Translations under genes and position numbers: made by a program
Part shown: piece after piece, positions 7,270 to 57,403 of the stretch
Position numbering within the stretch: position 1 is the first letter of the stretch
How the letters are laid out: every line of letters begins with the position of its first letter
Origin: Bacteroidales bacterium UBA4230
Lineage (GTDB): Bacteria; Bacteroidota; Bacteroidia; Bacteroidales; UBA932
Reading direction: 5' to 3'
DNA length: 63,460 bases
NCBI GenBank assembly: GCA_002395605.1
Contig: DGXO01000034.1
Location: forward strand, 1-63,460
The notes under the pieces: generated by a model
Told to the model about the DNA's origin: nothing
The model's input: only the letters and a program-made list of their open reading frames with translations
The model's database searches: none

Positions 7270-7359
7270 TAAACGGCTGGCAATCTGCAATTTACGCAAA
7301 GTCCCGTATTACTTTTTACCCACGGCAAAATGCATAATACACTAATAATAAAGCACTTA
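7270..7359. repeat. 90-bp box-dyad-box element, copy E1
   Basis: Boxes TAAACGGCTGGCAATCTGCAATTTA (7270) and TAATACACTAATAATAAAGCACTTA (7335); centred dyad CCGT...ACGG (weakest core); contains the ATG of the next gene. Confidence 0.65.
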
Positions 7360-9540
7360 GCAAAAACGCTCATCTTGCTTCCTTTGGCGCTTGCCTGCGG
7401 GCCGAAGCCGGAAAAACAGGTATCAGAGCCTTCCGGCATACATTTTTCCGTAGACGAGACCACCGGTAACCTCACTTTCCTTGGTTTGGGCGCAGGCGGG
7501 CACAACTACGCCGGCAGCAGCGGACTGTGGAGGATGTACTACAACACCCCGGAGCAGAAGGAGATAGAGATTACTCCCCTTGACGGAACGCCGGAGGTAA
7601 GTGTGGCGGGAGACACTGTGCATATAGACTACTCAACACTTGCCGGAAAAGCATTTGAGCTGCATCTGACGCTATGGAAAGAGGAAGGGCAGCTGAGGTT
7701 TGGAGCAACTGTAAAGAACAATGAGCCCCACACGATAATCCGCGAACTCCAGTACCCGCTTGTTGGGAAACTGCAACTGCCGGAAGGATACAGGCTTCTC
7801 ACAACCCACACCGGAGGGCAGATTCATGAGAACCCCGTGTGGAAGATATCCAACGTTGATACAAGGGCCCTTTATATGACCCCCGCCCAGAAGTTCCGCC
7901 AGATGGACCTCCAGTATCCCCGTAACGCCGCCGCCAACTGCTTTGCGTTCATCGGGGATGAGGACGGCCTGTACTTCGGCTCCCACGACACCTCCCTCCA
8001 GCAAACCTGGCACGGGCTCCGCACTTATCCCGATGAAGGGACAATAGGCCATGTGACGGAAGACTTCAAGAACCTTGAAGCGGGCTTTTACCGCTACCCC
8101 AACGCAATGTGCGGCGATACTTGGAGCAATGATGCCAGCGTGGTGGTGCCGTACACCGGAGACTGGACCGAGACTTCCCGCATTTACCGCAAGTGGGCCG
8201 ATACCTGGTGGCACCACGCCCCCGTTCCAAAGTGGGTTCAGGACATGACCGGCTGGCAGAGGGTCATCTTCAAGCACCAGTACGGAGAAGTCCTGCGCAC
8301 ATATGAGGACCTTCCCGGCCGCATTGCCGCCGCCGGAGAGTCTGTGGGTTGCAACGCCGTCCTGGCCTTCGGCTGGTGGGATGAAGGCATGGACAACGGC
8401 TATCCCAACTATACCCTGAAAGACGAAGCCTCATGGAAAGAGGCGATTGCTGCATATAGGGCAGGCAGTGCCGTCCCTCCGCGTTGCTTCGCAACCAACC
8501 GGGGCCCCCGGAAATCTTTGATTTCTGGGGTGGCTCTGTCCGGGCAAATGCTCCGGGACAGCACTGCCTGCCCTAAAAACAGGTTGTTGCTATACTTCAA
8601 CGGCCGTTTGATAGATGTAGAAAGCAACTTCTACAAGAGCGGCGGAGGGTCACGCGTAGCCAACAAAGACAACACGGGCAGGGAGTTCACGGAGCACTAC
8701 AAGTTCACCGGAGAAGGAACCACGCTGGGGTATTACGACTCCAGGACGTTCGTGATAGCCAACATGAGCAAGCGGGAGTGGCGTGACCAGCTCCTGAAGT
8801 GGGCCGACAGGGCCATGGAGTACGGCGCCGACGCCGTGTTCTACGACCAGCTTGGCGTTGCGGAGGAGTTCCCGGACTGGGACCTTTCCCGCGAATACCC
8901 CGTCCAGGACATCTTTACGGGCCGTTACAAGGCCGAAGCACTCAAGGAAATCCGAGACCACATCAAGGCAAAGGATCCGGAGTTCGGCCTTGGCACAGAA
9001 TGGCTCAGTGACTGCACCAGCCAGTTCTGCGACTTTGTGCACATTGTGGAGTTCACGGCGCTTCCGGAGAGCTTCCCGGAATGGTTCCGCTACACCTTCC
9101 CGGAGGTTGTGTGGAGCGACCGCTGCGTGCGCGACGACAACGACGTTCCCCGCCGCGTGAACAACACCCTCCTCAAGGGCCTCAGGAACGACATTGAGGT
9201 GTTCCGCTGCCGCGGACTCATAGATGAAACGCCTGTGTACCAGGCACATCTTGCAAAGGTGAACGAAATCCGTCACGCCTTCCCGGAGCTACTCCTTGAA
9301 GGCCGATACACCGCCACTGACGGCTTCACCTGCTCAGAAAAAGCCCTCACCGCCCGCAGCTTCACCGCCGGAGACAGGATGGCCGTAGTTGTGACAAATA
9401 CAGGTGATAAAATGAAGATAGGAAAGATTACGGCGCCGGGGTATAAACTCACTGGCAGCCGCAGCATAGGAGGGAAGATTGAATCAAACACCATAACGCT
9501 TGACACCAATGAAATTGCAGTACTTGTTTACTCTCGCTAG
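7330..9540 (+). CDS. DUF6259-type putative glycoside hydrolase (lipoprotein) carrying an in-frame palindromic insertion
   Basis: Lipobox ALAC; FGWW...GMDNGYPNY, YFNGRLID, GADAVFYDQLG; 39-codon foreign-looking segment at 8457-8575. Confidence 0.7.
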   Translation: MHNTLIIKHLAKTLILLPLALACGPKPEKQVSEPSGIHFSVDETTGNLTFLGLGAGGHNYAGSSGLWRMYYNTPEQKEIEITPLDGTPEVSVAGDTVHIDYSTLAGKAFELHLTLWKEEGQLRFGATVKNNEPHTIIRELQYPLVGKLQLPEGYRLLTTHTGGQIHENPVWKISNVDTRALYMTPAQKFRQMDLQYPRNAAANCFAFIGDEDGLYFGSHDTSLQQTWHGLRTYPDEGTIGHVTEDFKNLEAGFYRYPNAMCGDTWSNDASVVVPYTGDWTETSRIYRKWADTWWHHAPVPKWVQDMTGWQRVIFKHQYGEVLRTYEDLPGRIAAAGESVGCNAVLAFGWWDEGMDNGYPNYTLKDEASWKEAIAAYRAGSAVPPRCFATNRGPRKSLISGVALSGQMLRDSTACPKNRLLLYFNGRLIDVESNFYKSGGGSRVANKDNTGREFTEHYKFTGEGTTLGYYDSRTFVIANMSKREWRDQLLKWADRAMEYGADAVFYDQLGVAEEFPDWDLSREYPVQDIFTGRYKAEALKEIRDHIKAKDPEFGLGTEWLSDCTSQFCDFVHIVEFTALPESFPEWFRYTFPEVVWSDRCVRDDNDVPRRVNNTLLKGLRNDIEVFRCRGLIDETPVYQAHLAKVNEIRHAFPELLLEGRYTATDGFTCSEKALTARSFTAGDRMAVVVTNTGDKMKIGKITAPGYKLTGSRSIGGKIESNTITLDTNEIAVLVYSR
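8457..8575. mobile_element. MITE/REPIN-like element inserted in frame
   Basis: 21-bp terminal inverted repeats TAGGGCAGGCAGTGCCGTCCC / GGGACAGCACTGCCTGCCCTA (1 mismatch), TA at both ends, internal hairpins GTTGC-TTC-GCAAC and CCCCGGAAATC-TTT-GATTTCTGGGG. Confidence 0.85.
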
Positions 9541-16337: not shown

Positions 16338-16428
16338 TGGAAGTGAAAAGGCGCAAAAATGGGCAAAAATGCGGGAATCCAGTTGAGGTTGGAAGTGAAA
16401 TCCCGCAAAAATGGGCAAAAATGCGGGA
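16338..16428. repeat. Direct repeat, 52-bp period, with phased A-tracts
   Basis: TGGAAGTGAAA-nnn-CGCAAAAATGGGCAAAAATGCGGGA at 16338 and 16390. Confidence 0.85.
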
Positions 16429-16460
16429 TTTGAGTACGTAATTTTGTATCTTTGGGTAGG

Positions 16461-19247: not shown

Positions 19248-19258
19248 GCCCGTGGAGG

Positions 19259-19348
19259 CAACGCATTGACATTCAGCACATTACTCAAAAACGTCTGCCC
19301 GGTTTTGGGTAGACGTTTTAACATAACAATCACACAATCAATTACTTA
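19259..19348. repeat. 90-bp box-dyad-box element, copy E2 (core may also act as a bidirectional terminator)
   Basis: Boxes CAACGCATTGACATTCAGCACATTA (19259) and TAACAATCACACAATCAATTACTTA (19324); centred dyad AAAACGTCTGCCC / GGGTAGACGTTTT. Confidence 0.8.
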
Positions 19349-20099
19349 ATTCCACGGCCAAATCCGGGCGGTTGGTGGTGATAACGTCTACGCCAAGGTC
19401 CTTGAGGTACTTCATTTCCTCAGGGCTGTCTACGGTCCAGACATTGACCGTGAGGCCAAGGGCATGGGCGCGCTCCACCCAGTCCGCGTGCTTGTGGAAG
19501 GCCACCCAGTTGTAGTCTATGCCGTTAATGCCGTCTGCGTGAATTTGTTCCGGCTCCACCACACCTTCAAGATACTGGTTGCCGAAGCCGGGAAGATTTG
19601 CGGCTATCCACTTGCAAGCGTCGTAGCTGAAGGAGATGAACATCACGCGCTCCGGATCCAGAAGGCCGTGGGCCCTCAGTTGCCACACGCAGCGCCGGGT
19701 AAGTTCCAAAGTAGCCTCCACGGTGTCCTGCGGCTTTACCTCCAGCACCATCATACAGGCCGATTTTGCCCCCTGATGCAGGTATTCGTTGAGCGTGGGG
19801 ATGGTTTCTCCGTTTGGTAGACGGGCCCCAAGAAGCTGCCTGTAAGTGCTTGTGTGGATGGGAATTCCGGCAATGGAAGGGTCGTGGTTTACAACCACAA
19901 CGGAGTCTGCGGTAAGGTGAACGTCAAACTCGCTGCCCCAGAAACCGGCCTCCTGGGCTGCCTTCAGGGAGGCAATGGAATTCTGGGCATAACCGGCCTC
20001 CTGGCACTGCCAGTAACCGCGATGGGCACATACTTTCTGGGCTTTCACGGGCGCTGCCGCCAGCGCCAGAAGCGTAAAAAACAAAACAAGTTTTTTCAT
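19338..20099 (-). CDS. Glycerophosphodiester phosphodiesterase (GDPD), secreted
   Basis: Signal peptide; AHRG, QNSIAS, SEFDVHLTAD, VNVWTVD, VITTNRP. Confidence 0.92.
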   Translation of the reverse strand: MKKLVLFFTLLALAAAPVKAQKVCAHRGYWQCQEAGYAQNSIASLKAAQEAGFWGSEFDVHLTADSVVVVNHDPSIAGIPIHTSTYRQLLGARLPNGETIPTLNEYLHQGAKSACMMVLEVKPQDTVEATLELTRRCVWQLRAHGLLDPERVMFISFSYDACKWIAANLPGFGNQYLEGVVEPEQIHADGINGIDYNWVAFHKHADWVERAHALGLTVNVWTVDSPEEMKYLKDLGVDVITTNRPDLAVELSN

Positions 20100-22843: not shown

Positions 22844-23413
22844 ATGGAAAACGATAAAGACCTCATACAAAGAGCCCTTGCCGGAGACCAGATAGCCTAC
22901 CGCATGCTCTACCAAATCCACGAGCCCTCTGTCCGGGGGCGCGTGAGCGGCTATTTCAAATGGAAGGCCGATGTAGACGATGTTGTGTCCGAGAGCTTCC
23001 AGAAGGCGTTTTCGGCACTTTCGGCCTTTGACACTTCAAGGGAATTCAGCCCGTGGCTAATCACCATTGCCACCAGAACGGCGCTGGACCACCTTTCCAG
23101 CATCAAGAGGGAAGACAACAAGAAGGAGGGAATCCTGAGCAAGGCTTCGCAGGGAGACCCCATGGGCGCGGAGCTCACGGACACCACCCCGGAAGAGGAG
23201 ATTATCCAGGACGAGGTCCATCAGAGGCTCATACAGTATATAGACGAGCTTCCGTCGCTGTACAAGGACGTTATGATAAAATATATGATAGAAGAGCTTG
23301 AGTACGAGGAAATCGCAAAGGAACTGGGGCTTGAGCTCAATACGGTGCGCACCCGCATCAGGCGCGGCAAGCAGCACCTTTCGGAAATGATGTTAAGGGG
23401 GGAAGTGGAATGA
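22844..23413 (+). CDS. ECF sigma-70 factor
   Basis: GDQIAY, DDVVSESFQKAF, FSPWLITIA, YEEIAKELGLELNTVRTRIRRGK. Confidence 0.93.
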   Translation: MENDKDLIQRALAGDQIAYRMLYQIHEPSVRGRVSGYFKWKADVDDVVSESFQKAFSALSAFDTSREFSPWLITIATRTALDHLSSIKREDNKKEGILSKASQGDPMGAELTDTTPEEEIIQDEVHQRLIQYIDELPSLYKDVMIKYMIEELEYEEIAKELGLELNTVRTRIRRGKQHLSEMMLRGEVE

Positions 23414-24063
23414 CGTTTGATGATTTTATAGGTTTTATTGAGAAAGACTTTGAGCTTTCTTCAGAGCAAAGGGAGCGTTTTGCCGCCCTGGACGGGCTGT
23501 ACCGTGAGTGGAACGCCCAAATCAATGTGATCTCCCGGAAGGACATTGATGGCATTTACGATCACCATGTGCTTCATTCGCTGGCCATTGCGCGGTACAT
23601 CATGACGGTGCCGGGCCTGTGGGAAGAGTTCTCTTCGGCCTCCATTCTGGACCTTGGCACCGGCGGCGGATTTCCCGGAATTCCGCTGGCCATCCTGTTC
23701 CCTTCGGCCCAGTTTGTACTATGCGATTCCGTAGGGAAGAAAACCATTGTTGCTTCTGCCGTTTCAAAGGCGCTGGGGCTTTCCAACGTTTCCGTAGTTA
23801 ACGCCCGGGCCGAATCTCTTGGCCGCACCTTTGACTTTGTGGTATCGCGCGCCGTCGCCTCACTGCCGGATTTCTACCCCTGGGTCAAGGGCTGCTACTC
23901 CCGCGGCATCCTGTACCTCAAAGGCGGGGATGTCAACGAGGAAATCGCCGCCGTGATGTCCCGTCACAAGCTCCCCCGCGGTTCCGTGAGCACCTGGCCC
24001 GTCTCCTCTTGGCTCCAGGATCCTTACTTCGACGGCAAACTTGTAATCCATATCAGGAAATAA
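23410..24063 (+). CDS. rsmG: 16S rRNA m7G527 methyltransferase
   Basis: WNAQINVISRKD, HVLHSL, DLGTGGGFPGIPLAI, VVSRAV, LKGGD. Confidence 0.97.
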   Translation: MTFDDFIGFIEKDFELSSEQRERFAALDGLYREWNAQINVISRKDIDGIYDHHVLHSLAIARYIMTVPGLWEEFSSASILDLGTGGGFPGIPLAILFPSAQFVLCDSVGKKTIVASAVSKALGLSNVSVVNARAESLGRTFDFVVSRAVASLPDFYPWVKGCYSRGILYLKGGDVNEEIAAVMSRHKLPRGSVSTWPVSSWLQDPYFDGKLVIHIRK

Positions 24064-24068
24064 TTACC

Positions 24069-24096
24069 TGTCATTTCGAGCGAAGTCGAGAAATCT
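24069..24096 (+). repeat. REP palindrome
   Basis: TGTCATTTCGAGCGAAGTCGAGAAATCT, same family as 22802 and 31530. Confidence 0.85.
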
Positions 24097-24104
24097 CAAA
24101 AATA

Positions 24105-24136
24105 TTTGGGATTTTCACTTGGAATTACTACCTTTG
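24105..24136 (+). promoter_or_regulatory. Bacteroidetes housekeeping promoter of rpmH
   Basis: TTTG (24105)-N20-TACCTTTG (24129). Confidence 0.8.
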
Positions 24137-24173
24137 CAGTCCCTATTACGCGAAAATATAAAAAACACATATC

Positions 24174-24326
24174 ATGAAAAGAACATTTCAACCTTCCCGT
24201 CGCAAGCGCGTGAACAAGCACGGCTTCCGCGCCCGCATGGCTTCCGCCAACGGCCGCCGCGTCCTTAGCGCCCGTCGCCGCCATGCACGTAAGAAACTCT
24301 CCGTCTCCGACGAAGACCGCTGGTAG
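24174..24326 (+). CDS. rpmH: 50S ribosomal protein L34 (absent from the ORF track)
   Basis: Translated by hand: [50 protein letters not shown]. Confidence 0.97.
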
Positions 24327-24389
24327 TTTTCCGCGGCCGGTCCGGAATCTGGCAAGCGCCACTCCAACCGGTTCTTACAACAATCGCCT

Positions 24390-24422
24390 AACGCAGACCG
24401 CTCCTTCGGCCTGCGTTTTTTG
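24390..24422 (+). terminator. Rho-independent terminator after rpmH
   Basis: AACGCAGACCG-CTCCTT-CGGCCTGCGTT followed by a T run. Confidence 0.75.
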
Positions 24423-24520
24423 TATCCCGCATCCCCCACTTCATTCCCCTCCGCATTTCTCCCCTATCGGCTTTTCTTCCCCCTCGGCCCGCTCTGGCGT
24501 TTTGCCGTGGCGGTGCGACG

Positions 24521-24610
24521 TAAAGCACTAGCAATCAACAACTTGCACGGTTCTTTGGGAAAAGCGGTAATCCCAAACAACCCAGCAAACACCTCACAAT
24601 CAACACTTTA
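24521..24610. repeat. 90-bp box-dyad-box element, copy E3 (left flank of the transposase unit)
   Basis: Boxes TAAAGCACTAGCAATCAACAACTTG (24521) and CAAACACCTCACAATCAACACTTTA (24586); centred dyad TTTGGGA-N10-TCCCAAA. Confidence 0.85.
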
Positions 24611-24675
24611 ACTGCCACCGACCAACAGGAGTCTTTGTACATTTGTGGCAAAGATAAACTACATACCATACGTCC

Positions 24676-25218
24676 ATGACTTACTACAGCCAGCTTCTCC
24701 TTTATTACTTTCTCCATAGCGCAGGAACCATTCTGGAAGAACCAGAGCAGGAGTACTCTGGCCTTTCAGAGGAAACCGAGGCCACGGAACTGTCCGGCTT
24801 CGTGAAAGAGGCTTCGGCTGGCGGGCTGGTCCCGCCTCCGCCGCACGAAGTCATTCGCATTACGCGCGGGTACAGGATTTATTATGGAGGAAACGAACTC
24901 AAACTCAGGCCCATGTCCAAGGCTGTCATGCTCCTTTTCCTGCGGCATCCGGAAGGAATTGCCCTTAAGGACATCGGGGATCACCGCGAAGAACTCACGC
25001 GTCTTTACTCCGGTGTTGCACGCACGGACAACCCTGTCAGGATAGAGAAAAGCATCGGCCGAGTCCTTGATATCTTCTCAAATGAGCTTAATGTGAACCT
25101 TTCCAGGGTTAACGCCGCTCTTTCGGCTCTTGAAAATGAAGGCCGATACCACATGAAAGGCCGTGCCGGGGAGCCTAGGGCCCTTAAATTTTCAAGGGTA
25201 ATCGTCATTTGGGAATAG
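24676..25218 (+). CDS. Hypothetical protein with a probable winged-helix DNA-binding domain
   Basis: Upstream TACATTTG -7 box at 24638; ELKLRPMSKAVMLLFLRHPEGI...LNVNLSRVNAAL resembles OmpR-type wHTH. Confidence 0.55.
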   Translation: MTYYSQLLLYYFLHSAGTILEEPEQEYSGLSEETEATELSGFVKEASAGGLVPPPPHEVIRITRGYRIYYGGNELKLRPMSKAVMLLFLRHPEGIALKDIGDHREELTRLYSGVARTDNPVRIEKSIGRVLDIFSNELNVNLSRVNAALSALENEGRYHMKGRAGEPRALKFSRVIVIWE

Positions 25219-25250
25219 TCGTTTACCCGTACTCCTTTAAAACAGCAAAA

Positions 25251-25266
25251 TGTTTCACGTGAAACA
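25251..25266. other. parS: parS centromere-like site
   Basis: Perfect 16-bp palindrome TGTTTCACGTGAAACA, intergenic, about 1 kb from rsmG/rpmH. Confidence 0.88.
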
Positions 25267-25330
25267 ACGCTATTTGTTACGGGGTTATTGCATAACGGCC
25301 GCATAATGCATAATTTGGCGACAAAAAATA

Positions 25331-26251
25331 ATGCATATGAAACGTAGAGTCGCAGAGGGTGAAGTTCACCACATTTACCAGAAAACAAAAGGCGGAGTCG
25401 TTATCTTTTATTCGCTCAGGGACTACCTTGTATACTTTACCATTTTCTGTACCCTGGCAGAGAGAATGGATGTCACGGTGCTTGCTTTGTGCCCTATGCC
25501 GGACCACCTTCATAGCGCTTGCCGGTTCGCAAGTGCAGAGCAGATGGTAAGGTTTGTGCAGCAGTACACAAGGATTTTTGTAAAAGAGTGGAATCACTCC
25601 AGAAAGCGCAAAGGCTCCCTTGTACAGGAGCACTTTGGAAGTGCACCCAAAATTGGGAACAAAGCCGTACGTACCACCATTAATTACAACAACAATAATC
25701 CAGTAGAACGCAAGATAACGGCCCGGGCCGAAGATTATCGGTGGAATTTCCTCAAGTATTTTAATAATCGCCATCCTTTTTCCAAACCTCTTGATGAATC
25801 GCATTCATCTCATAAGCTTAGGAGTGTACTTCAAGAAGTGAGAGCAGTTTACAAGAATGAACAATGGTTGCGGTACTCTCAACTTGATCTCTGGATGAAA
25901 GGGCTATCATCCGGAGAAGTGCAACAACTGGCCGACTACATAATAACAACTTGGAATGTAATTGATTATGTAGGGGCTATCAGCTACTATGGTGAATACG
26001 CCGCAATGCTACGAAGCTTCAACGACAACACCGGCGGAGAATATGATATTAAAGAAGATAAGGACAACTATTCAGATGCCGTCTATAATGACTGCACGCA
26101 AATACTTATTCGTGAAGGATACATTTCCAGCGTACGGGAGATACCTTGTATGTTCCTAGACAGGAAAATGGAACTATACAAGTTGCTTCAGTCCAGAACA
26201 GCAGCAAAACCATCTCAAATTAAGAAATATCTGCATCTGAGTGGAATATAG
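25331..26251 (+). CDS. HUH Y1 transposase of the REP-associated (RAYT)/IS200-like type with a long C-terminal extension
   Basis: HHIY, CPMPDHLH (HUH motif), KGSLVQEHFGS, YNNNNPV (catalytic Tyr), EDYRW; visibly more AT-rich than its neighbours; no tnpB. Confidence 0.88.
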   Translation: MHMKRRVAEGEVHHIYQKTKGGVVIFYSLRDYLVYFTIFCTLAERMDVTVLALCPMPDHLHSACRFASAEQMVRFVQQYTRIFVKEWNHSRKRKGSLVQEHFGSAPKIGNKAVRTTINYNNNNPVERKITARAEDYRWNFLKYFNNRHPFSKPLDESHSSHKLRSVLQEVRAVYKNEQWLRYSQLDLWMKGLSSGEVQQLADYIITTWNVIDYVGAISYYGEYAAMLRSFNDNTGGEYDIKEDKDNYSDAVYNDCTQILIREGYISSVREIPCMFLDRKMELYKLLQSRTAAKPSQIKKYLHLSGI

Positions 26252-26261
26252 AGGTGTCAAC

Positions 26262-26351
26262 TATATAATTGATACTCAGGCGTTTGCAGAATCATTTGGG
26301 ATTACCCGTTTTCCCAAACAAATGTATAAACGCCTGATAATAAACCGATTA
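26262..26351. repeat. 90-bp box-dyad-box element, copy E4 (right flank, inverted relative to E3)
   Basis: Boxes TATATAATTGATACTCAGGCGTTTG (26262) and TAAACGCCTGATAATAAACCGATTA (26327); centred dyad TTTGGGA-N10-TCCCAAA. Confidence 0.85.
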
Positions 26352-26478
26352 GCTGGCACCAACACGGCAAAACACAAAGGGGGCAACGTGCAATAATGTG
26401 CTAGTTAGCTTGCACCACCAGGGGAGAAAAATAGGGGGCGCAATGTGCAGGGCAAGCGCAGGGCACAAGCCCGGGGCA

Positions 26479-27822
26479 CTACTTCTCTATGGGGTAGAGC
26501 TTCAGGAGCAGCAGGATGAGGAGGGCGATGGCGGCCGGGAACAAGGAGAACAGGGCCCAGATCATGGTTTGGACGGAGGACTGGTTCACGATTGTGACCA
26601 CGGTTTCTCCGGTTGCGGGGTCTGTGCCGGAGATAAAGCCGGCAAGGCCAAGGAGCAGCGCCACAAGCGCGCCGGATATGGCCGAACCAAACTTCTGGGA
26701 CATGGTGCCGGAAGAGAAGATGAGGCCGGTGGAGGAGGTTCCGTTTTTCTCCGTGGCAAAATCCGCAACGTCTGCGTACATGGACCAAAGGAGCGGAGAA
26801 TATATGCCGATACCAACAGAGGTGAGGATGACGGTTGCAACCATTAACCAGATATAGGCGGGGTCCATTGGGATGAAGAAGAAGCCGATGGACGTAACTG
26901 CGCAAATGACCGCTGCCCAGGCAAATGCCTTCTTCTTGGAGCCCACCCACTTTGTGAAGCGGGGAGAAAGGCCGCCGAAGACCATGCAGGTAACTTCACC
27001 GAAGGTCATGAACACCGTGTAGTTGATGATGAGGCCCGACACCGTCACGTCTCCGTGCAGGCAGTATTCCAGAAGGTAACCTGCAACGGCATAGCGGAAA
27101 CCGTTGAAGAAGTTGGTGCAAATGCCAATCAAAGTCAGATAGATCCAGGGCTTGTTGCGGAAAAGGTCTGCGAAAGGCTTGAATGAGAACTTCTCTGCGC
27201 GCACGGGCTTCAGGCGTTCACGGGTGAGAAGGCCGCAGGCAAGGGTGCCAAGGGCGGCCACGGTGCCAAGGACCACGCCCAGAACCGCATACTGGTGCTG
27301 AGGGGTGCCGCCAATCATTTTCTGGAGGTAAGGGAAGGAAAGAAGAGTGACGAAACCCATGGCATAAGCGCCCACCATGCGGTAAGACGAGAACTCGTTC
27401 TTCTCATTGTCGTCGTCTGTCATAACGCCAAGAAGTGACCCGTAAGGCACGTTCACGGCCGTGTATACCGCCATCATGAGAAGGTACAGGGAGTATGCCC
27501 AGATACGTTTCCCAACCGGGCCGAAGTCCGGGGTAAAGAGCAGCAGGGCAAACACCAGCCCAAGCGGAATGGCGCCGAAGATAAGCCACGGCCTGTAGGT
27601 TCCCCAGCGGGACTGGGTACGGTCTGCGATGGCTCCCATCATGGGGTCCGTGACAACGTCGAAGAGACGCGCCACCAGCATAAGGGTGGCGGTATCTGCA
27701 ACCGTAAGGCCGAAGATGTTGGTGAAAAACAGCGGAAACGCAATTGACATCACTTTCCAGGTGATTCCGCCAGCTGCGGCATCTCCCAGACCATATCCTA
27801 TTTTCTCAATGAGTTTGGCCAT
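26479..27822 (-). CDS. MFS glycoside-pentoside-hexuronide:cation symporter
   Basis: EKIGYGLGD, DPMMGAIADRTQSRWGTYRPW, NVPYGSL, MYADVAD; about 12 hydrophobic segments. Confidence 0.92.
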   Translation of the reverse strand: MAKLIEKIGYGLGDAAAGGITWKVMSIAFPLFFTNIFGLTVADTATLMLVARLFDVVTDPMMGAIADRTQSRWGTYRPWLIFGAIPLGLVFALLLFTPDFGPVGKRIWAYSLYLLMMAVYTAVNVPYGSLLGVMTDDDNEKNEFSSYRMVGAYAMGFVTLLSFPYLQKMIGGTPQHQYAVLGVVLGTVAALGTLACGLLTRERLKPVRAEKFSFKPFADLFRNKPWIYLTLIGICTNFFNGFRYAVAGYLLEYCLHGDVTVSGLIINYTVFMTFGEVTCMVFGGLSPRFTKWVGSKKKAFAWAAVICAVTSIGFFFIPMDPAYIWLMVATVILTSVGIGIYSPLLWSMYADVADFATEKNGTSSTGLIFSSGTMSQKFGSAISGALVALLLGLAGFISGTDPATGETVVTIVNQSSVQTMIWALFSLFPAAIALLILLLLKLYPIEK

Positions 27823-36317: not shown

Positions 36318-37772
36318 TCAATATTCCCAGTCATCTGAACGGAATGGCGGAACGGGGATGCCGCTGCTCTTCGCAAGGTTTGCGCCCATCCAGTTACGGA
36401 AGCCGTAGCGCACGGCAACGGGCTTTGCGACCTCCGGGCAGCGCACTATTATGGTCTCCCCGTCCCAGTCTATTTCGGCCTTGGCAAGGTGGAATTCACG
36501 GTCTTCTCCGGCAAGTTCAAAGCCCACCACATCACGGGAAGAAATGGAACCGAGGTTGCTCCAGACATTGGTAAGGCGTACCTTCACGGTGCCGTCTTCC
36601 TCTACGTTCCACTCTTTGAGGCGAGCCGGTTCAATGGAAATGCCGGTAGGGATGCCGTACACGTTCTGAAGGGCGGTAAGTTCCATCATGTCGGCAACCT
36701 CCTTTTTTTGTGAAGGATGCACTGTAACCTTGTTGCCAAGGGTTTCGGTGCACACATACCATGCGTTTGATGTCATTGAGGCCATCCTCATCTGGGCCTC
36801 AACAAAGTGGGGACGCCAGCGGCCGTAAGCATCGCCGTGATCATAGGGCGCAAGAAGGACGTAGATGAAAGGCATGTCGCCGCGGCCCCAGGAGTCTCTC
36901 CAGAGCTGAAGCATGGATGCCTGAAGTTTGTCGTAGCAGCCCGGCTGACCCATGTTGGAGCATCCCTGATACCACAGGAAGCCCTTTGCGGCATAACCCA
37001 CAATGGGAAGTACACGGCCGTTCCAGATAAGTTCCGGAGTCTCCGGCCAGCGGTCTGGCTGTTCCTTGACGGAGTAGAGCTCGTCAAGCTCCTTCTGGGT
37101 AAGTCCTGCACGGTTAATGGCTTCACGCGTCATCCAGGGCTCTATCCGGCTTCCGCCCCAGGCATTTACTATGATACCTACCGGAATACCAAGGTTATTT
37201 GACAGCCTTTTTGCAAAGAAATATCCCACGGCCGAAGTACGTGACACCACGTCTCCGGTAGAGTAAGTCCACTTTGCATCCACATCCTTTTGCGGCTCCG
37301 TGCACTTTGGAGCCTTGATATCGAACACGCGGATCTGTTTTGCGGTTTCGGCAGCCTCCAGGATAGCTTCTGTAGCGCCTTCAACTTCCTGAAAACCAAA
37401 GCCGCCAATGGGCATCTCCATGTTGGACTGGCCGGAGCAAATCCAGACCTCGCCAAGGGAGACGTCACTTACGGCAAGCTTTTCTTTACCGCTTTTTACG
37501 GTAATGGTATAGCCGCAGCCTGCTTCCCCTGTTGTCACATTCACTCGCCAGGAGCCGTCATGCGCCACCTTGGTCTTGAAGGTTTTGCCGTTCCAGGAGG
37601 TTTTAACGGTTACTGTTTTGCCGGCTTCTCCCCAGCCCCACACAGGAGTGGTGGTCTCACGCTGCAAAACGGCGTGATCAGTGAAAAGATGGGACAGCTG
37701 CAGAGTCTGTGCATTCAACGCCGCGCTCAGGAAGAGGAGCGCCGCCACGCAGCGTGGACGTAAATTACTCAT
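36318..37772 (-). CDS. Sialate O-acetylesterase-family (SGNH) acetylesterase
   Basis: GEVWICSGQSNM, WGGSRIEPW, LWYQG, VHP; start at 37772 gives a signal peptide. Confidence 0.88.
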   Translation of the reverse strand: MSNLRPRCVAALLFLSAALNAQTLQLSHLFTDHAVLQRETTTPVWGWGEAGKTVTVKTSWNGKTFKTKVAHDGSWRVNVTTGEAGCGYTITVKSGKEKLAVSDVSLGEVWICSGQSNMEMPIGGFGFQEVEGATEAILEAAETAKQIRVFDIKAPKCTEPQKDVDAKWTYSTGDVVSRTSAVGYFFAKRLSNNLGIPVGIIVNAWGGSRIEPWMTREAINRAGLTQKELDELYSVKEQPDRWPETPELIWNGRVLPIVGYAAKGFLWYQGCSNMGQPGCYDKLQASMLQLWRDSWGRGDMPFIYVLLAPYDHGDAYGRWRPHFVEAQMRMASMTSNAWYVCTETLGNKVTVHPSQKKEVADMMELTALQNVYGIPTGISIEPARLKEWNVEEDGTVKVRLTNVWSNLGSISSRDVVGFELAGEDREFHLAKAEIDWDGETIIVRCPEVAKPVAVRYGFRNWMGANLAKSSGIPVPPFRSDDWEY

Positions 37773-37850
37773 TGTTAATTCTTTATGCATTTTAGGGTGC
37801 CGAAAAACAAGCACCCTCTTTTAATTAACTCACTTATATTCAATTACTTG
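37761..37850. repeat. 90-bp box-dyad-box element, copy E5
   Basis: Boxes TAAATTACTCATTGTTAATTCTTTA (37761) and TAACTCACTTATATTCAATTACTTG (37826); centred dyad AGGGTGC-N10-GCACCCT. Confidence 0.8.
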
Positions 37851-39010
37851 TCTCCACGGCCTTCATTGGCGTCAATGAGCCGGTTGATGGCCTCAACGGA
37901 AAGACCGGTGCGGAAACCGTCCGCGGGAGTGTTCATGCAGTAGTCCACAAGGCGGTCTACAGTTGATGTTGCCACGTGCATGCGGGTGTCTGAGGAAGCG
38001 TAGTAGATGAACACACGGCCGTCGGGGTCGGCAATCCAGCCGTTACTGAACAGCACGTTCATAACGTCTCCGATGTACTCCCAGCCTTCAGGTACCATGA
38101 AGAAGCCGCCGGGCTCTGCAATAACGCGTGAAGGGTCGTCAAGGGCGGTCATGTACATGTAAAGGACATAGCGCAGGCCGCTTGCGCAGCCGCGTACGCC
38201 GTGGGCAAGGTGCAGCCAGCCCTTAGGGGTCTTGATGGGATGCGGGCCTTCTCCGTTTTTCACTTCCTTTATGGTGTGGTAGTGACGGAGGTTGATTATC
38301 TTCTCCTCCTTTATCACGGCGCCTTCCATGGTGTCTACAAGGGCCCAGCCGATGCCGCCGCCGCTGCCGGCGTCAATGAAGCCGTCCTGGGGGCGGGTGT
38401 AGAGGGCATACTTGCCGTTCACGAATTCCGGATGAAGCACCACGTTGCGCTGCTGGCTGGTTGACTGGATATCAGGAAGCCTTTCCCAGTTCACAAGGTC
38501 CTTGGTGCGGGCTACACCGGCCGCTGCTGTTGCGGCAGAGAGGTCCCCTTCGGCCGAATGGTCCTTGCGCTCCACGCAGAAGATGCCGTAAATCCAGCCG
38601 TCTTCATGGGCGGTAAGACGCATGTCATATACGTTGGTGGCGGGTTCTCCCCACTCAGGCATGGTTATGGGGCGGGGCCAGAACTTGAAGTTGTCAACTC
38701 CGTTGGGGCTTTCGGCCACAGCGAAGAAACTCTTGCGGTCATTGCCTTCCACGCGAACTACAAGGACGTACTTCCCGTTCCACTTTATGGCGCCGGAATT
38801 CAGCGTTGCGTGCACGCCGATGCGCTCCATAAGGTACGGATTACGCACAGGGTCAAGGTCATAGCGCCACTCAAGGGGTGCGTGATCGGCCGTGATTATG
38901 GGATTTTCCCAGCGCTCGTAGACGCCGTTTCCTTCAATGGGGGAATTTTTCTTTTCAATCAGTGCCCGATGGTTGTTCCTAAGCCAATCAAGCCTCTTTT
39001 CATAATTCAT
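37844..39010 (-). CDS. GH130 4-O-beta-D-mannosyl-D-glucose phosphorylase
   Basis: RVEGNDRKSFFA, NVYDMRL, QQRNVVLHPE, EVKNGEG, GDVMNVLF. Confidence 0.94.
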   Translation of the reverse strand: MNYEKRLDWLRNNHRALIEKKNSPIEGNGVYERWENPIITADHAPLEWRYDLDPVRNPYLMERIGVHATLNSGAIKWNGKYVLVVRVEGNDRKSFFAVAESPNGVDNFKFWPRPITMPEWGEPATNVYDMRLTAHEDGWIYGIFCVERKDHSAEGDLSAATAAAGVARTKDLVNWERLPDIQSTSQQRNVVLHPEFVNGKYALYTRPQDGFIDAGSGGGIGWALVDTMEGAVIKEEKIINLRHYHTIKEVKNGEGPHPIKTPKGWLHLAHGVRGCASGLRYVLYMYMTALDDPSRVIAEPGGFFMVPEGWEYIGDVMNVLFSNGWIADPDGRVFIYYASSDTRMHVATSTVDRLVDYCMNTPADGFRTGLSVEAINRLIDANEGRGDK

Positions 39011-39022
39011 ATTTAGGTTATA

Positions 39023-40126
39023 TTAGTCAAGAAAAAGTATGTTATCAAGTTCACTGAAGGCCTTCATGTCGGCCTCATACTCAAAGCCCTTCCACGCGGC
39101 ATAGAAATGCTCCGGTTTGTCGTGGGCATTGCGCCAGGTGAGGAGATAGCTGATGGGGTACTCCCTCACGGCAGGCTCCAGGATCTCTGTCCACCAGGTG
39201 GGGTACTTGATGCCTTCATAGCCGGTTTCGGAGAGGCACATGAGCTTGTTGTGCTCATAAGAAAGGGCCGTAAGGAATGTAAGTATGCGGCGGAGTTCGC
39301 CCTTGAAACGGGCGCTGGCATCGGCCACGGTGCCATTTCCCACATATTCATAGGAATCCACGCCAAGGATATCCACAAACTCGTCTCCGGGATAGCGGCT
39401 CATGTATTCCTCCGGCTTTATGTCTCCGTTGGGGGAATAGCACCAGAGGATGTTTGTAAGGCCGCGGTCTTTGGTAAGGTACAGCCAGGTGTGGCGGTAA
39501 AGCTCCTGGTACTCCTGAGCGGAGCAAAGCTTGCCTCCCCACCAGAACCAGCTGCCTATATTCTCATGCCAGGGGCGGAAAACGACGGGGACATCCGGGC
39601 CGATGGATTCCAGGAAATCGGCCACACGGGACAGCCAGGTGCGGAATTCACGCTCCTTTTCCCCTCCCTTCAGGATGGATTTCACCACCTGGTCGGAGCT
39701 CACATCCCAGGCGTCGCCGCCGGTAAGGGGATTGCGCGGATGCCATGAGAAAGTGACTATGCCGCCGCGCTCCACCTGTTTTTGAGCCGCACGGCGCATA
39801 AGGTCGAAGGGCACACCGTCAAGGTTCTCGTCGGCCCCCAGCTCAATGCCGCCAAGGTCACAGCCAAGGATAACGGGATACTTTCCGGTAACATCCTTGA
39901 CATCCGAGCGCTCCAGGGGATCATTCTCCGCGTCCGTTACCAGCCAGTTGTGGCCGTAGAAAAGGTCGTCCTGGTGGCCGTAGGCAATCTTGCCTTCTTC
40001 GGCATAGGTGAAAAGCCTGTGCACAAGCTCATCTTTTGGCGTTTCCATAGGCTTTTTGTCACGGGGACCGCAGCCAACGCACATGGCCACCGCAAGAAGG
40101 GAGAGGTAAGCGTTTTTCCTAATCAT
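39023..40126 (-). CDS. GH26 beta-mannanase
   Basis: YGHQDD, FSWH, FRPWHE, LSETG, TWRN. Confidence 0.94.
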   Translation of the reverse strand: MIRKNAYLSLLAVAMCVGCGPRDKKPMETPKDELVHRLFTYAEEGKIAYGHQDDLFYGHNWLVTDAENDPLERSDVKDVTGKYPVILGCDLGGIELGADENLDGVPFDLMRRAAQKQVERGGIVTFSWHPRNPLTGGDAWDVSSDQVVKSILKGGEKEREFRTWLSRVADFLESIGPDVPVVFRPWHENIGSWFWWGGKLCSAQEYQELYRHTWLYLTKDRGLTNILWCYSPNGDIKPEEYMSRYPGDEFVDILGVDSYEYVGNGTVADASARFKGELRRILTFLTALSYEHNKLMCLSETGYEGIKYPTWWTEILEPAVREYPISYLLTWRNAHDKPEHFYAAWKGFEYEADMKAFSELDNILFLD

Positions 40127-40209
40127 TTTATTATCAATAACTTACGTATTTTACTCCTATCCTTTTTGCCTGGAGTAAATGTTGTATTTAACTATAAATC
40201 AATTAATTA
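40120..40209. repeat. 90-bp box-dyad-box element, copy E6
   Basis: Boxes TAATCATTTTATTATCAATAACTTA (40120) and TATTTAACTATAAATCAATTAATTA (40185); centred dyad TTTACTCC / GGAGTAAA. Confidence 0.8.
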
Positions 40210-40221
40210 ACAAAAACGGCA

Positions 40222-56981: not shown

Positions 56982-56987
56982 GTTCAG

Positions 56988-57174
56988 CCGTCGCAGGTGG
57001 CATTGCGAACTGTCGCAGGTGGCATTGCGAACTGTCGCAGGTGGCATTGCAAAACGTCGCGGGTCTGCAAAAAAACTCTGACCTGCGACGGTTTTTGCCT
57101 CTTATGGCCGATTTGCGTCGCAGTTCGGCCGAAAAACGCAGACCTGCGACGGTTTCTCATAGGACCTGCGACGG
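56988..57174. repeat. 22-bp tandem repeat (x3) plus inverted copies of its core
   Basis: GTCGCAGGTGGCATTGCGAACT at 56990 and 57012, variant at 57034; inverted core GACCTGCGACGG at 57080, 57141, 57163. Confidence 0.9.
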
Positions 57175-57203
57175 CTCAACGCCAGACCTGCCGCGCAGCC
57201 ACC

Positions 57204-57346
57204 GCCCGAGCACGGAAACGGCACAAAAACGTGCGCGGAGGGGGCAAAAGTACCAGCCCGAGCACGGAAACGGCACTAAAACGTGCGCGGAGGGGGCAAA
57301 AGCACCCGCCAGAGCACGAAAACGGCCAAAAACGTGGACGGAGAGG
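57204..57346. repeat. 52-bp tandem repeat (about 2.7 copies)
   Basis: GCCCGAGCACGGAAACGGCACAAAAACGTGCGCGGAGGGGGCAAAAG... at 57204, 57256, 57308. Confidence 0.9.
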
Positions 57347-57403
57347 GCGGGTATCGGAGAAATGCGAAAAAATTACGATATTTGCATAAATTAGTGCAAG
57401 AAG

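Follow-up and report, generated by a model that had tools for sequence, protein, structure and literature searches.

A RAYT-type nuclease of Bacteroidales and its 108-bp palindromic elements, with gene segments inverted between relatives

The host role of the domesticated RAYT transposases (REP-associated tyrosine transposases, after the repetitive extragenic palindromes, or REPs) and the way their repeats move in vivo are an open question, which we addressed with a cassette in a 63,460-nt stretch of the genome of Bacteroidales bacterium UBA4230 (contig DGXO01000034.1, GenBank assembly GCA_002395605.1; the whole stretch is called the window below). In this cassette, the genes of a 306-residue RAYT-type HUH/Y1 nuclease and of a 180-residue protein lie between two 108-bp palindromic elements. 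The best reading of the system is a REPIN/TIRtron-like variant, which works like REPIN-RAYT and is built like a TIRtron. Judging from sequence comparison, we consider it likely, with a probability of roughly 60%, that the RAYT-type enzyme is specific for its own type of repeat, which it nicks and copies; the outcome would be the inverted repeat pairs and the gene-sized segments found flipped between close relatives.

TIRtrons, also named TIRYT (Di Nocera et al. 2013, PMC3733652), fall mostly in subclass 2.1 of Quentin et al. 2018 (PMC6006769), at least in the parts of the two papers available to us. As described in these parts, a TIRtron resembles our locus in that its RAYT-like gene has a C-terminal extension and lies between long inverted repeats that are not related to the GTAG REPs; some of the repeats are self-complementary, some form moderately abundant families, and paralogs have different repeats (PMC3733652). 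In contrast to the system described here, the same parts give no arms resembling sites of integration host factor (IHF), no fixed 108-bp geometry, no inversion, no bracketing of host genes and no mapping of specificity (PMC3733652), and the word 'inversion' is absent from that paper. The GGGGWSAS motif, which the available text gives for many but not all terminal inverted repeats (TIRs), is absent from all six family consensuses obtained here. The C-terminal helix-turn-helix (HTH) types named for TIRtrons in these sources are Bac_DnaA_C, HTH_23 and HTH_28, and for subclass 2.1 the accessible portion of Quentin et al. reports that no REP-like flanks were found (PMC6006769).

The REPIN-RAYT systems or REPtrons (groups 2 and 3, with E. 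coli TnpA_REP, structure 4er8), as far as the portions available describe them, resemble ours in the fold and catalytic motifs of the enzyme and in a non-duplicating gene at a fixed locus, and also in ~100-bp extragenic palindromic repeats that co-evolve with the enzyme and in several paralog-family pairs per genome (PMC3333891, PMC3479197, PMC5581495, bioRxiv 10.1101/2021.07.10.451892). However, the elements here lack the GTAG-tagged short REP (5' GT[AG]G), have a spacer of fixed and not variable length and carry a central core key together with an end key, and the 306-residue protein has an insertion and a C-terminal helical domain. Element pairs here also bracket host genes and the enzyme's own gene, which are found inverted, unlike in REPIN-RAYT. 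BIME-1 (bacterial interspersed mosaic element 1, or RIB) of E. coli is likewise palindromic and linked to a RAYT, and it carries an IHF site (PMC3333891), where our elements have consensus-like ones; in the sections available it has one IHF site in the linker between two REPs, whereas here two overlapping, opposite consensus sites per arm flank the hairpin of the core. Subclass 2.6 (RAYT group 5) of Bacteroidetes shares with our locus the phylum and atypical, non-GTAG flanking palindromes, but in the 30 of its 68 supplementary rows that were covered, 29 are 13-42-nt hairpins and one is a 122-nt nested palindrome without the arm motif of our elements.

In the IS200/IS605 insertion sequences, the gene moves with its ends and leaves near-identical copies at new sites, whereas here the gene sits at one locus and the paralogs are divergent. 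Invertible DNA occurs in Bacteroidales as invertase-driven promoters and shufflons, in which segments between inverted repeats occur in two orientations. In contrast, our cassette has no tyrosine or serine recombinase, its repeats are ~120 bp long, and inversion is seen between relatives and not as phase variation. In the literature covered, which took in few subscription papers and, beyond the papers cited here, listings and the openings of abstracts, we found no description of the 108-bp element, of IHF-armed TIRs or of RAYT-linked gene inversion; figures and supplements could include members of the family.

The cassette, its enzyme and the element families

The gene order in the window is rsmG, rpmH, left element, 180-residue open reading frame (ORF), 306-residue ORF, right element and a convergent major facilitator superfamily (MFS) gene, where rsmG, rpmH and MFS are names that we presume from the look of the translations. 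The presumed rpmH (L34; 24174..24326, + strand) is the fixed left neighbour of the cassette. The left element (24512..24619) belongs to family F4, called type A below, and consists of end motif, IHF-like arm, core hairpin, arm and end motif; on its outer side lies a box of type A (24499..24511, + strand), a degenerate form of GTAATGCCGAYGC. Its left arm contains a site (24533..24545, + strand) resembling WATCAR-N4-TTR, which we take to be the IHF consensus, and a second such site is found at 24598-24610. The core hairpin (24554..24577) is the key of the family, and the 38-nt core region folds with z −2.25. The 180-residue ORF (24676..25218, + strand) is of unassigned family, and the next ORF (25331..26251, + strand) encodes the class-2 (RAYT-type) HUH/Y1 nuclease with H59, H61, Y119 and the Y---NP motif. 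The right element (26253..26360), also F4 (type A), begins 2 nt past the enzyme's stop codon and folds with z −3.15; its core hairpin is at 26295..26318 and its outer box at 26361..26373 (− strand).

An earlier sequence-only reading of the window had already noticed that 24499-24614 aligns without gaps to the reverse complement of 26258-26373, with matches of 16/18 in the outer motif and 22/24 in the core, and had named both ORFs; all of this was reproduced, with 75 of 116 positions identical. The repeat unit, which it had put at 90 bp, is in fact the 108-bp self-palindrome together with a 13-bp outer box. Its statement that only these two copies share a core holds within the window but not in the genome, where the core pattern with at most one mismatch has 19 matches (0 in the reversed control) and a looser scan gives ~22, and a private two-copy repeat is ruled out by these 19-22 copies.

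The enzyme reached the cut-off of Pfam Y1_Tnp (23 bits), and its score against the NCBIfam RAYT equivalog NF047646 was 37.9 bits, below the cut-off of 80. H61, Y119 and N122 were invariant and H59, N123 and P124 nearly so in 85 sequences, and Y---NP is the class-2 signature in the part available of Quentin et al. (PMC6006769). The AlphaFold2 model (pLDDT 93, a predicted confidence) had its best fold match in TnpA_REP 4er8 over model residues 1-246 (Z 15.1, root-mean-square deviation 2.8, 162 aligned; Foldseek E 1e-4). The protein thus combines the traits of class-2 RAYTs, namely an HUH motif with a catalytic Tyr, the TnpA_REP fold and one fixed locus without recent duplicates. For the C-terminal domain there was no Pfam match, and Atlas HTH leads reached a weak 0.79-0.81. 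Residues 231-250 form a low-confidence loop with a nearly invariant E242; as the structural alignment to 4er8 extends to residue 246, this loop may be the autoinhibitory acidic tail of TnpA_REP, placed after a helical insertion. Four paralogs, ~37% identical (33-43% in five relatives), are present in the genome itself, each beside elements of one family. In the genus, 91 of 151 genomes gave matches at E <= 0.001, some of them weak, and 300 other genomes drawn from the order (two of the same genus) gave no full-length match at E <= 1e-30. At E <= 1e-30, a profile search gave 361 clusters (50% identity).

In the genome (2.08 Mb, 79% complete), 91 elements were detected by their geometry, compared with 0 in one block-shuffled copy; the true number is at least this, because a degenerate F2 element in the window (37752..37859; core of the paralog on contig C71) was missed by the detector. 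By their cores, the elements form six families of 22, 20, 14, 14, 10 and 9 copies, plus 2 others, and each family has its matching end motif. The geometry was strict: the centre was even and the spacing invariant in 91/91 elements, and an A stood 44 nt from the centre in 182/182 halves. The arm consensus consists of two overlapping, opposite matches to the presumed IHF consensus. With up to one mismatch allowed, 82 and 104 of the 182 half-arms carried them, as opposed to 0.0005 per position in the background, an excess that partly follows from how the detector was built. Because the complementarity of left and right arms was not above that predicted by the consensus, we read the arms as putative double-stranded binding sites at a fixed distance, and not as stems, with the core as the hairpin. 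Next to the core, positions 13-17 were 74-86% complementary (58-70% expected), a feature favoured by the detector. For Bacteroides, a review gives BHFa as a host factor of the IHF/HU family (PMC6606824). None of the 91 elements lay inside an ORF by our own calls; 39 were between convergent, 38 between tandem and 10 between divergent genes, and 4 were at contig edges. Boxes were restricted to families F4 and F5, began with GTAAT or GTTCT and folded poorly.

We also considered the whole element as one long hairpin of single-stranded DNA or RNA and rejected it, since the arms are not complementary beyond the consensus and the left copy shows no better folding than its shuffled versions (z −0.69). 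There was no Rfam match for the element at E <= 1.

Elements of one family tended to be neighbours. In the window's own genome, 8 of the 11 most similar element pairs lay within 10 kb, and 24/91 elements had a same-family neighbour within 5 kb, whereas 1000 label shuffles gave 8.8 on average and never more than 20. Of the 501 inverted pairs in the window, the longest is the core of the F4 pair. The two F4 copies agree at 9-10 of 28 variable positions, close to the mean of 9.8 over all 4095 element pairs, so that their likeness is that of the family consensus and not of recent copying; by this measure the window's own pair is old. The paralog on contig C12 lies near a contig end (G000:C12:53630-56804, L220) and sits together with four host ORFs between two F6 elements, which are recent inverted copies (24/28 variable positions). 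Tandem arrays of 2-3 elements with 134-nt spacing, like local BIME amplification, were seen downstream of the enzyme at L072 (G010:C18), L069 and L071.

The window also contains a stand-alone F1 element with another core (19250..19357) and a stand-alone F6 element with the core of the C12 paralog (40111..40218), and a partial arm-and-end remnant akin to the latter lies at 7313-7375. A search for an empty site of the F1 element at 19303 mapped no clean one, as the relatives drawn were too distant. Several other repeats were noticed on the way. Three ~750-bp composite repeats (G000:C55:15900-23450, L218), 77-84% alike, alternate in orientation between host genes, and each joins another repeat, one type-A and one type-B element. 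The short palindrome TTGGACCTGGTCCA has 15 strand matches genome-wide (e.g., G000 C20, C30, C51 and C85; L193 and L212), often after type-A elements, and occurs at both junctions of one inverted segment. Repeats of the GTCGCAGGT type (78 strand matches in the genome) and 52-nt tandem units are found at window positions 56982-57348 and 16338-16435. In the promoter region of the enzyme, 25251-25266 is a perfect 16-bp palindrome that matches the parS consensus; the assembly contains no other exact copy, but C68 has two related sites. The remaining three paralogs also have GAAAC/GTTTC motifs upstream, and the palindrome may thus be an operator instead. The cumulative GC skew of the window has its minimum at ~32-34 kb.

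Enzyme alleles and element types

The sequence-only reading had suggested that the element may be the substrate of the enzyme and that different cores could serve as keys for paralogs. Comparison of homologous loci supports the element as the partner, and putative substrate, of this enzyme family, and the cores behave like such keys. Among 101 loci (full-length, from among the matches listed, plus the own paralogs), 76 had an element no farther than 900 nt on the upstream or 400 nt on the downstream side. Both sides shared the core in 45 of 49 two-element loci but in only 10 of 465 cross-locus pairs.

The switch of a core together with an enzyme allele was seen in nine close cassettes, of which the window, L001-L004 and L008 are type A and L005-L007 are type B (F5). 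Core and box differ between A and B cassettes and the end motif is common to both, and the fixed amino-acid differences between the A and B enzymes cluster at residues ~78-100. Between L004 and L005, identity is 95-100% across the neighbour gene and the promoter but 64% in the ~78-100 segment, where L005 and L007 are 95% identical. The commoner core fitted the enzyme allele in all nine genomes, two of them near parity: A:B counts were 19:10, 34:1, 35:5, 22:20, 37:11 and 36:1 in six A genomes and 15:18, 3:22 and 1:12 in three B genomes, and reversed controls gave 0. Box remnants of the other type were found outside the current element in the window, L001, L002, L005 and L007. In the window, the remnant is a type-B (F5) box and end motif outside the right type-A element (26413..26430, − strand), which suggests that the right site was earlier occupied by type B.

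To locate the keys along the enzyme, we used 74 of the 76 loci, dropping L122, L115 and the upstream match of L095 as doubtful elements. In a sliding scan corrected for overall identity, likeness of the end motif followed residues 152-171 (r 0.37 in 52 thinned loci; maximum of 500 permutations 0.285). In 30 disjoint sister pairs the two effects were separate: cores were more alike where 70-104 had more excess identity (rho 0.59, p 0.0005), ends were more alike where 152-171 did (rho 0.41, p 0.024), and neither segment had an effect on the other trait (cross terms −0.13 and 0.15). The 306-residue enzyme can be drawn as a core-tracking segment (~70-104), an end-motif-tracking segment (~152-171) and then the C-terminal helical domain. 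The C-terminal helices 250-303 were rejected as the specificity domain, as neither the core nor the end motif gave a signal there. The alphaC helix of E. coli TnpA_REP inserts into the groove of the hairpin (PMC3479197), and because the fold is shared, the ~70-104 segment would be the counterpart of alphaC.

These results also bear on the idea that an unlinked tyrosine or serine recombinase acts with IHF on the elements as its att-like sites, the Y1 gene being merely bracketed by them. The fixed spacing, the IHF-like arms read as double-stranded and the resemblance of the inversions described below to site-specific recombination speak for this idea. We consider it quite unlikely, however, since every paralog has elements of its own family next to it and, in the allele swap, the core goes with 30 residues of the Y1 protein.

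Inverted cassettes and host segments

The sequence-only reading had advised looking for inversion in related genomes, and inversion indeed exists between relatives. All 15 loci with both genes had an element on each side, and their cassettes sat in the polA-sigma-rsmG-rpmH region even where enzyme identity fell to 53%. Orientation, called from rsmG and the 180-residue gene, was forward in 10 and inverted in 5 of these. In a tree of the flanking host genes, inverted cassettes were scattered, and the sister pairs L004/L005 and L069/L071 (100 bootstrap) were opposite in orientation, whereas the enzyme tree groups L005 with L007 and L069 with L070. From the groupings in the two trees, at least three inversions of the cassette are needed.

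The 180-residue gene is inside the cassette in each of these 15 loci of the subclade and flips along with it, as would be expected if its protein bound the box and were needed by the enzyme. Such a two-gene system, which the sequence-only reading had entertained, is very unlikely: the gene is absent beside the other 26 loci in one locus set, many of which have elements, and in three genomes it lies behind rpmH without enzyme or element (in a fourth it is at another locus). Boxes, moreover, occur only in F4 and F5, and no DNA-binding fold was established for the protein. The winged-HTH label proposed for it found no family or fold support: there was no Foldseek match, PDB sequence match or Pfam family, and the model (pLDDT 75) matched best to VIA (Z 3.6), with response-regulator effector domains at no more than Z 2.6. 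The gene is probably a resident host gene captured between elements, a passenger. At L076 (G093:C32), where neither enzyme nor element is close by, rpmH and the 180-residue gene share an inversion with respect to rsmG. Many 250-490-residue ORFs in the genus also end in the C-terminal part of the protein (residues ~55-180), which is covered by no Pfam family; a weak second match, G000:C51:4896, lies beside a type-A element.

We then compared 40 regions in five close relatives, picked around element pairs with matching spacings. By our own count, 6 of 10 element-bounded host segments that were compared end to end were inverted in some genomes, with lengths of 1.3-2.2 kb and collinear flanks; at L197/L202 an internal repeat gave a strand switch, which we kept out of this count. 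An A or B element was present at 50 of 57 strand-switch points, which were tallied per query locus and are hence non-independent, while elements and their surroundings make up 8.4% of the 328 kb. Of the other seven points, four face an element of the partner genome or mark its loss, one is an internal repeat and two belong to one inversion away from A/B elements (L209/L216), near one end of which a repeat of the family of GTCGCAGGT-type and 52-nt-unit repeats was noticed. At the ends of pairs in the relatives, boxes were on the outer side in 61/80 and on the inner side in 22/80. Inverted near-copies (>=19/28 variable positions) made up 14 of 40 adjacent pairs compared with 2 of 540 background pairs.

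Could these inversions be assembly errors at inverted repeats in metagenome-assembled genomes? All compared genomes are drafts, and the locus 3 inversion was seen in one assembly only. Nonetheless this explanation is extremely unlikely, because most orientations are common to 2-3 separate assemblies, the repeats are short and divergent, the junctions are at the inner end and not in the identical core, and inversion often accompanies a change of element type.

The main rival limits the enzyme, as in REPIN-RAYT, to the seeding and upkeep of its keyed repeats, and ascribes the inversions and the homogenised pairs to host RecA recombination and gene conversion between the ~120-bp inverted repeats. 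In its favour, the members of a pair are often 80-95% alike, which is sufficient for homologous recombination, conversion tracts extend variable distances into the flanks, and the relatives are mosaics in which host clades cross element types. The junctions themselves point elsewhere. The inner junction bases moved together with the segment, and in the single mappable A/A inversion both element bodies remained with the outer flanks; since the bodies stay outside, the exchange took place at the inner end motif, that is, in the last ~10 of 108 nt. In addition, the segment was also inverted at 5 of 7 sites that changed type (the cassette included), which plain recombination between fixed repeats does not predict. 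We therefore regard the RecA explanation as rather unlikely, and prefer the reading that the enzyme nicks and copies its own repeat type. At orthologous sites, the type of the element mostly agreed with that of the genome (A with A, B with B), irrespective of host clade.

Several observations weigh against this preferred reading. No element was found at 25 of the 101 homologous loci. G456 has 20 B cores, yet only an A enzyme was found in it, and G000 (a 79%-complete assembly) has 10 B and 14 F1 elements without a cognate enzyme found. In the sliding scan the core signal at 67-91 was marginal (r 0.16, null 95th percentile 0.145), the 152-171 segment was chosen on the same data that tested it, and a tree-based test of independent pairs for the end motif against residues 159, 161 and 164 went in the same direction but was not significant (~3:0 of 10 pairs). 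The 40 regions were a non-random choice, one of the six inversions has another repeat at both junctions, and the L209/L216 inversion lies away from A/B elements. Finally, contigs of runs X1, X3, X4 and X5 (window 23400-27400; G000:C55:14500-25500) contained no strand-switch joint at an element among the rows shown, and contigs drop rare variants; joints that skip the cassette at 85% likeness are probably from other organisms.

A possible mechanism and its meaning

The mechanism that we propose would begin with the helix and loop after the HUH motif (~70-104) reading the extruded core hairpin, in the manner of alphaC in E. coli TnpA_REP, while residues ~152-171 may read the end motif and a host IHF/HU-like protein would bend both arms and so bring ends and core together. 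A nick at or near the end motif would then leave a 3'-OH that primes copying or strand transfer, either to a site 1-4 kb off or to an existing element, and the outcome would be an inverted copy and often an inverted segment, through duplicative inversion or conversion. An inverted segment with inverted copies on its two sides is what intramolecular replicative transposition is expected to leave. After a swap of the recognition segment by recombination, the population of elements would turn over to the new key; B elements at the same sites in two host clades possibly arose from short-tract exchange between relatives followed by allele-dependent retention. Nick-primed copying has been proposed as a model for BIME amplification (PMC3333891).

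A bolder reading, which we hold as tentative and somewhat unlikely, is that the protein is a two-key modular site-specific recombinase, in which the core segment would read the hairpin and the end segment the end motif, host IHF would form the synapse, and the enzyme itself would invert host segments of 1-4 kb and overwrite old elements with those of its own type. If this is true, a swap of ~30 residues reprograms dozens of sites per genome, and the RAYT would have a visible function at the level of the host, the heritable shuffling of gene orientation, together with a natural library of hundreds of orthogonal enzyme-site pairs.

Under the preferred reading of an enzyme that nicks and copies its own repeat, the footprints of repeat movement are readable in this group, as inverted near-copy pairs, inverted genes and the in-place replacement of one type by another after a natural allele swap, and the question of what RAYTs do thereby becomes directly testable. 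The 361 clusters, with cores that differ where flanks were examined, may offer a large natural set of enzymes and sites for deriving a recognition code or for engineering. The results point to a so far unnoticed way in which gene order changes in these gut bacteria, an abundant group, and if our reading is true, the enzyme would be a previously undescribed engine of gene inversion.

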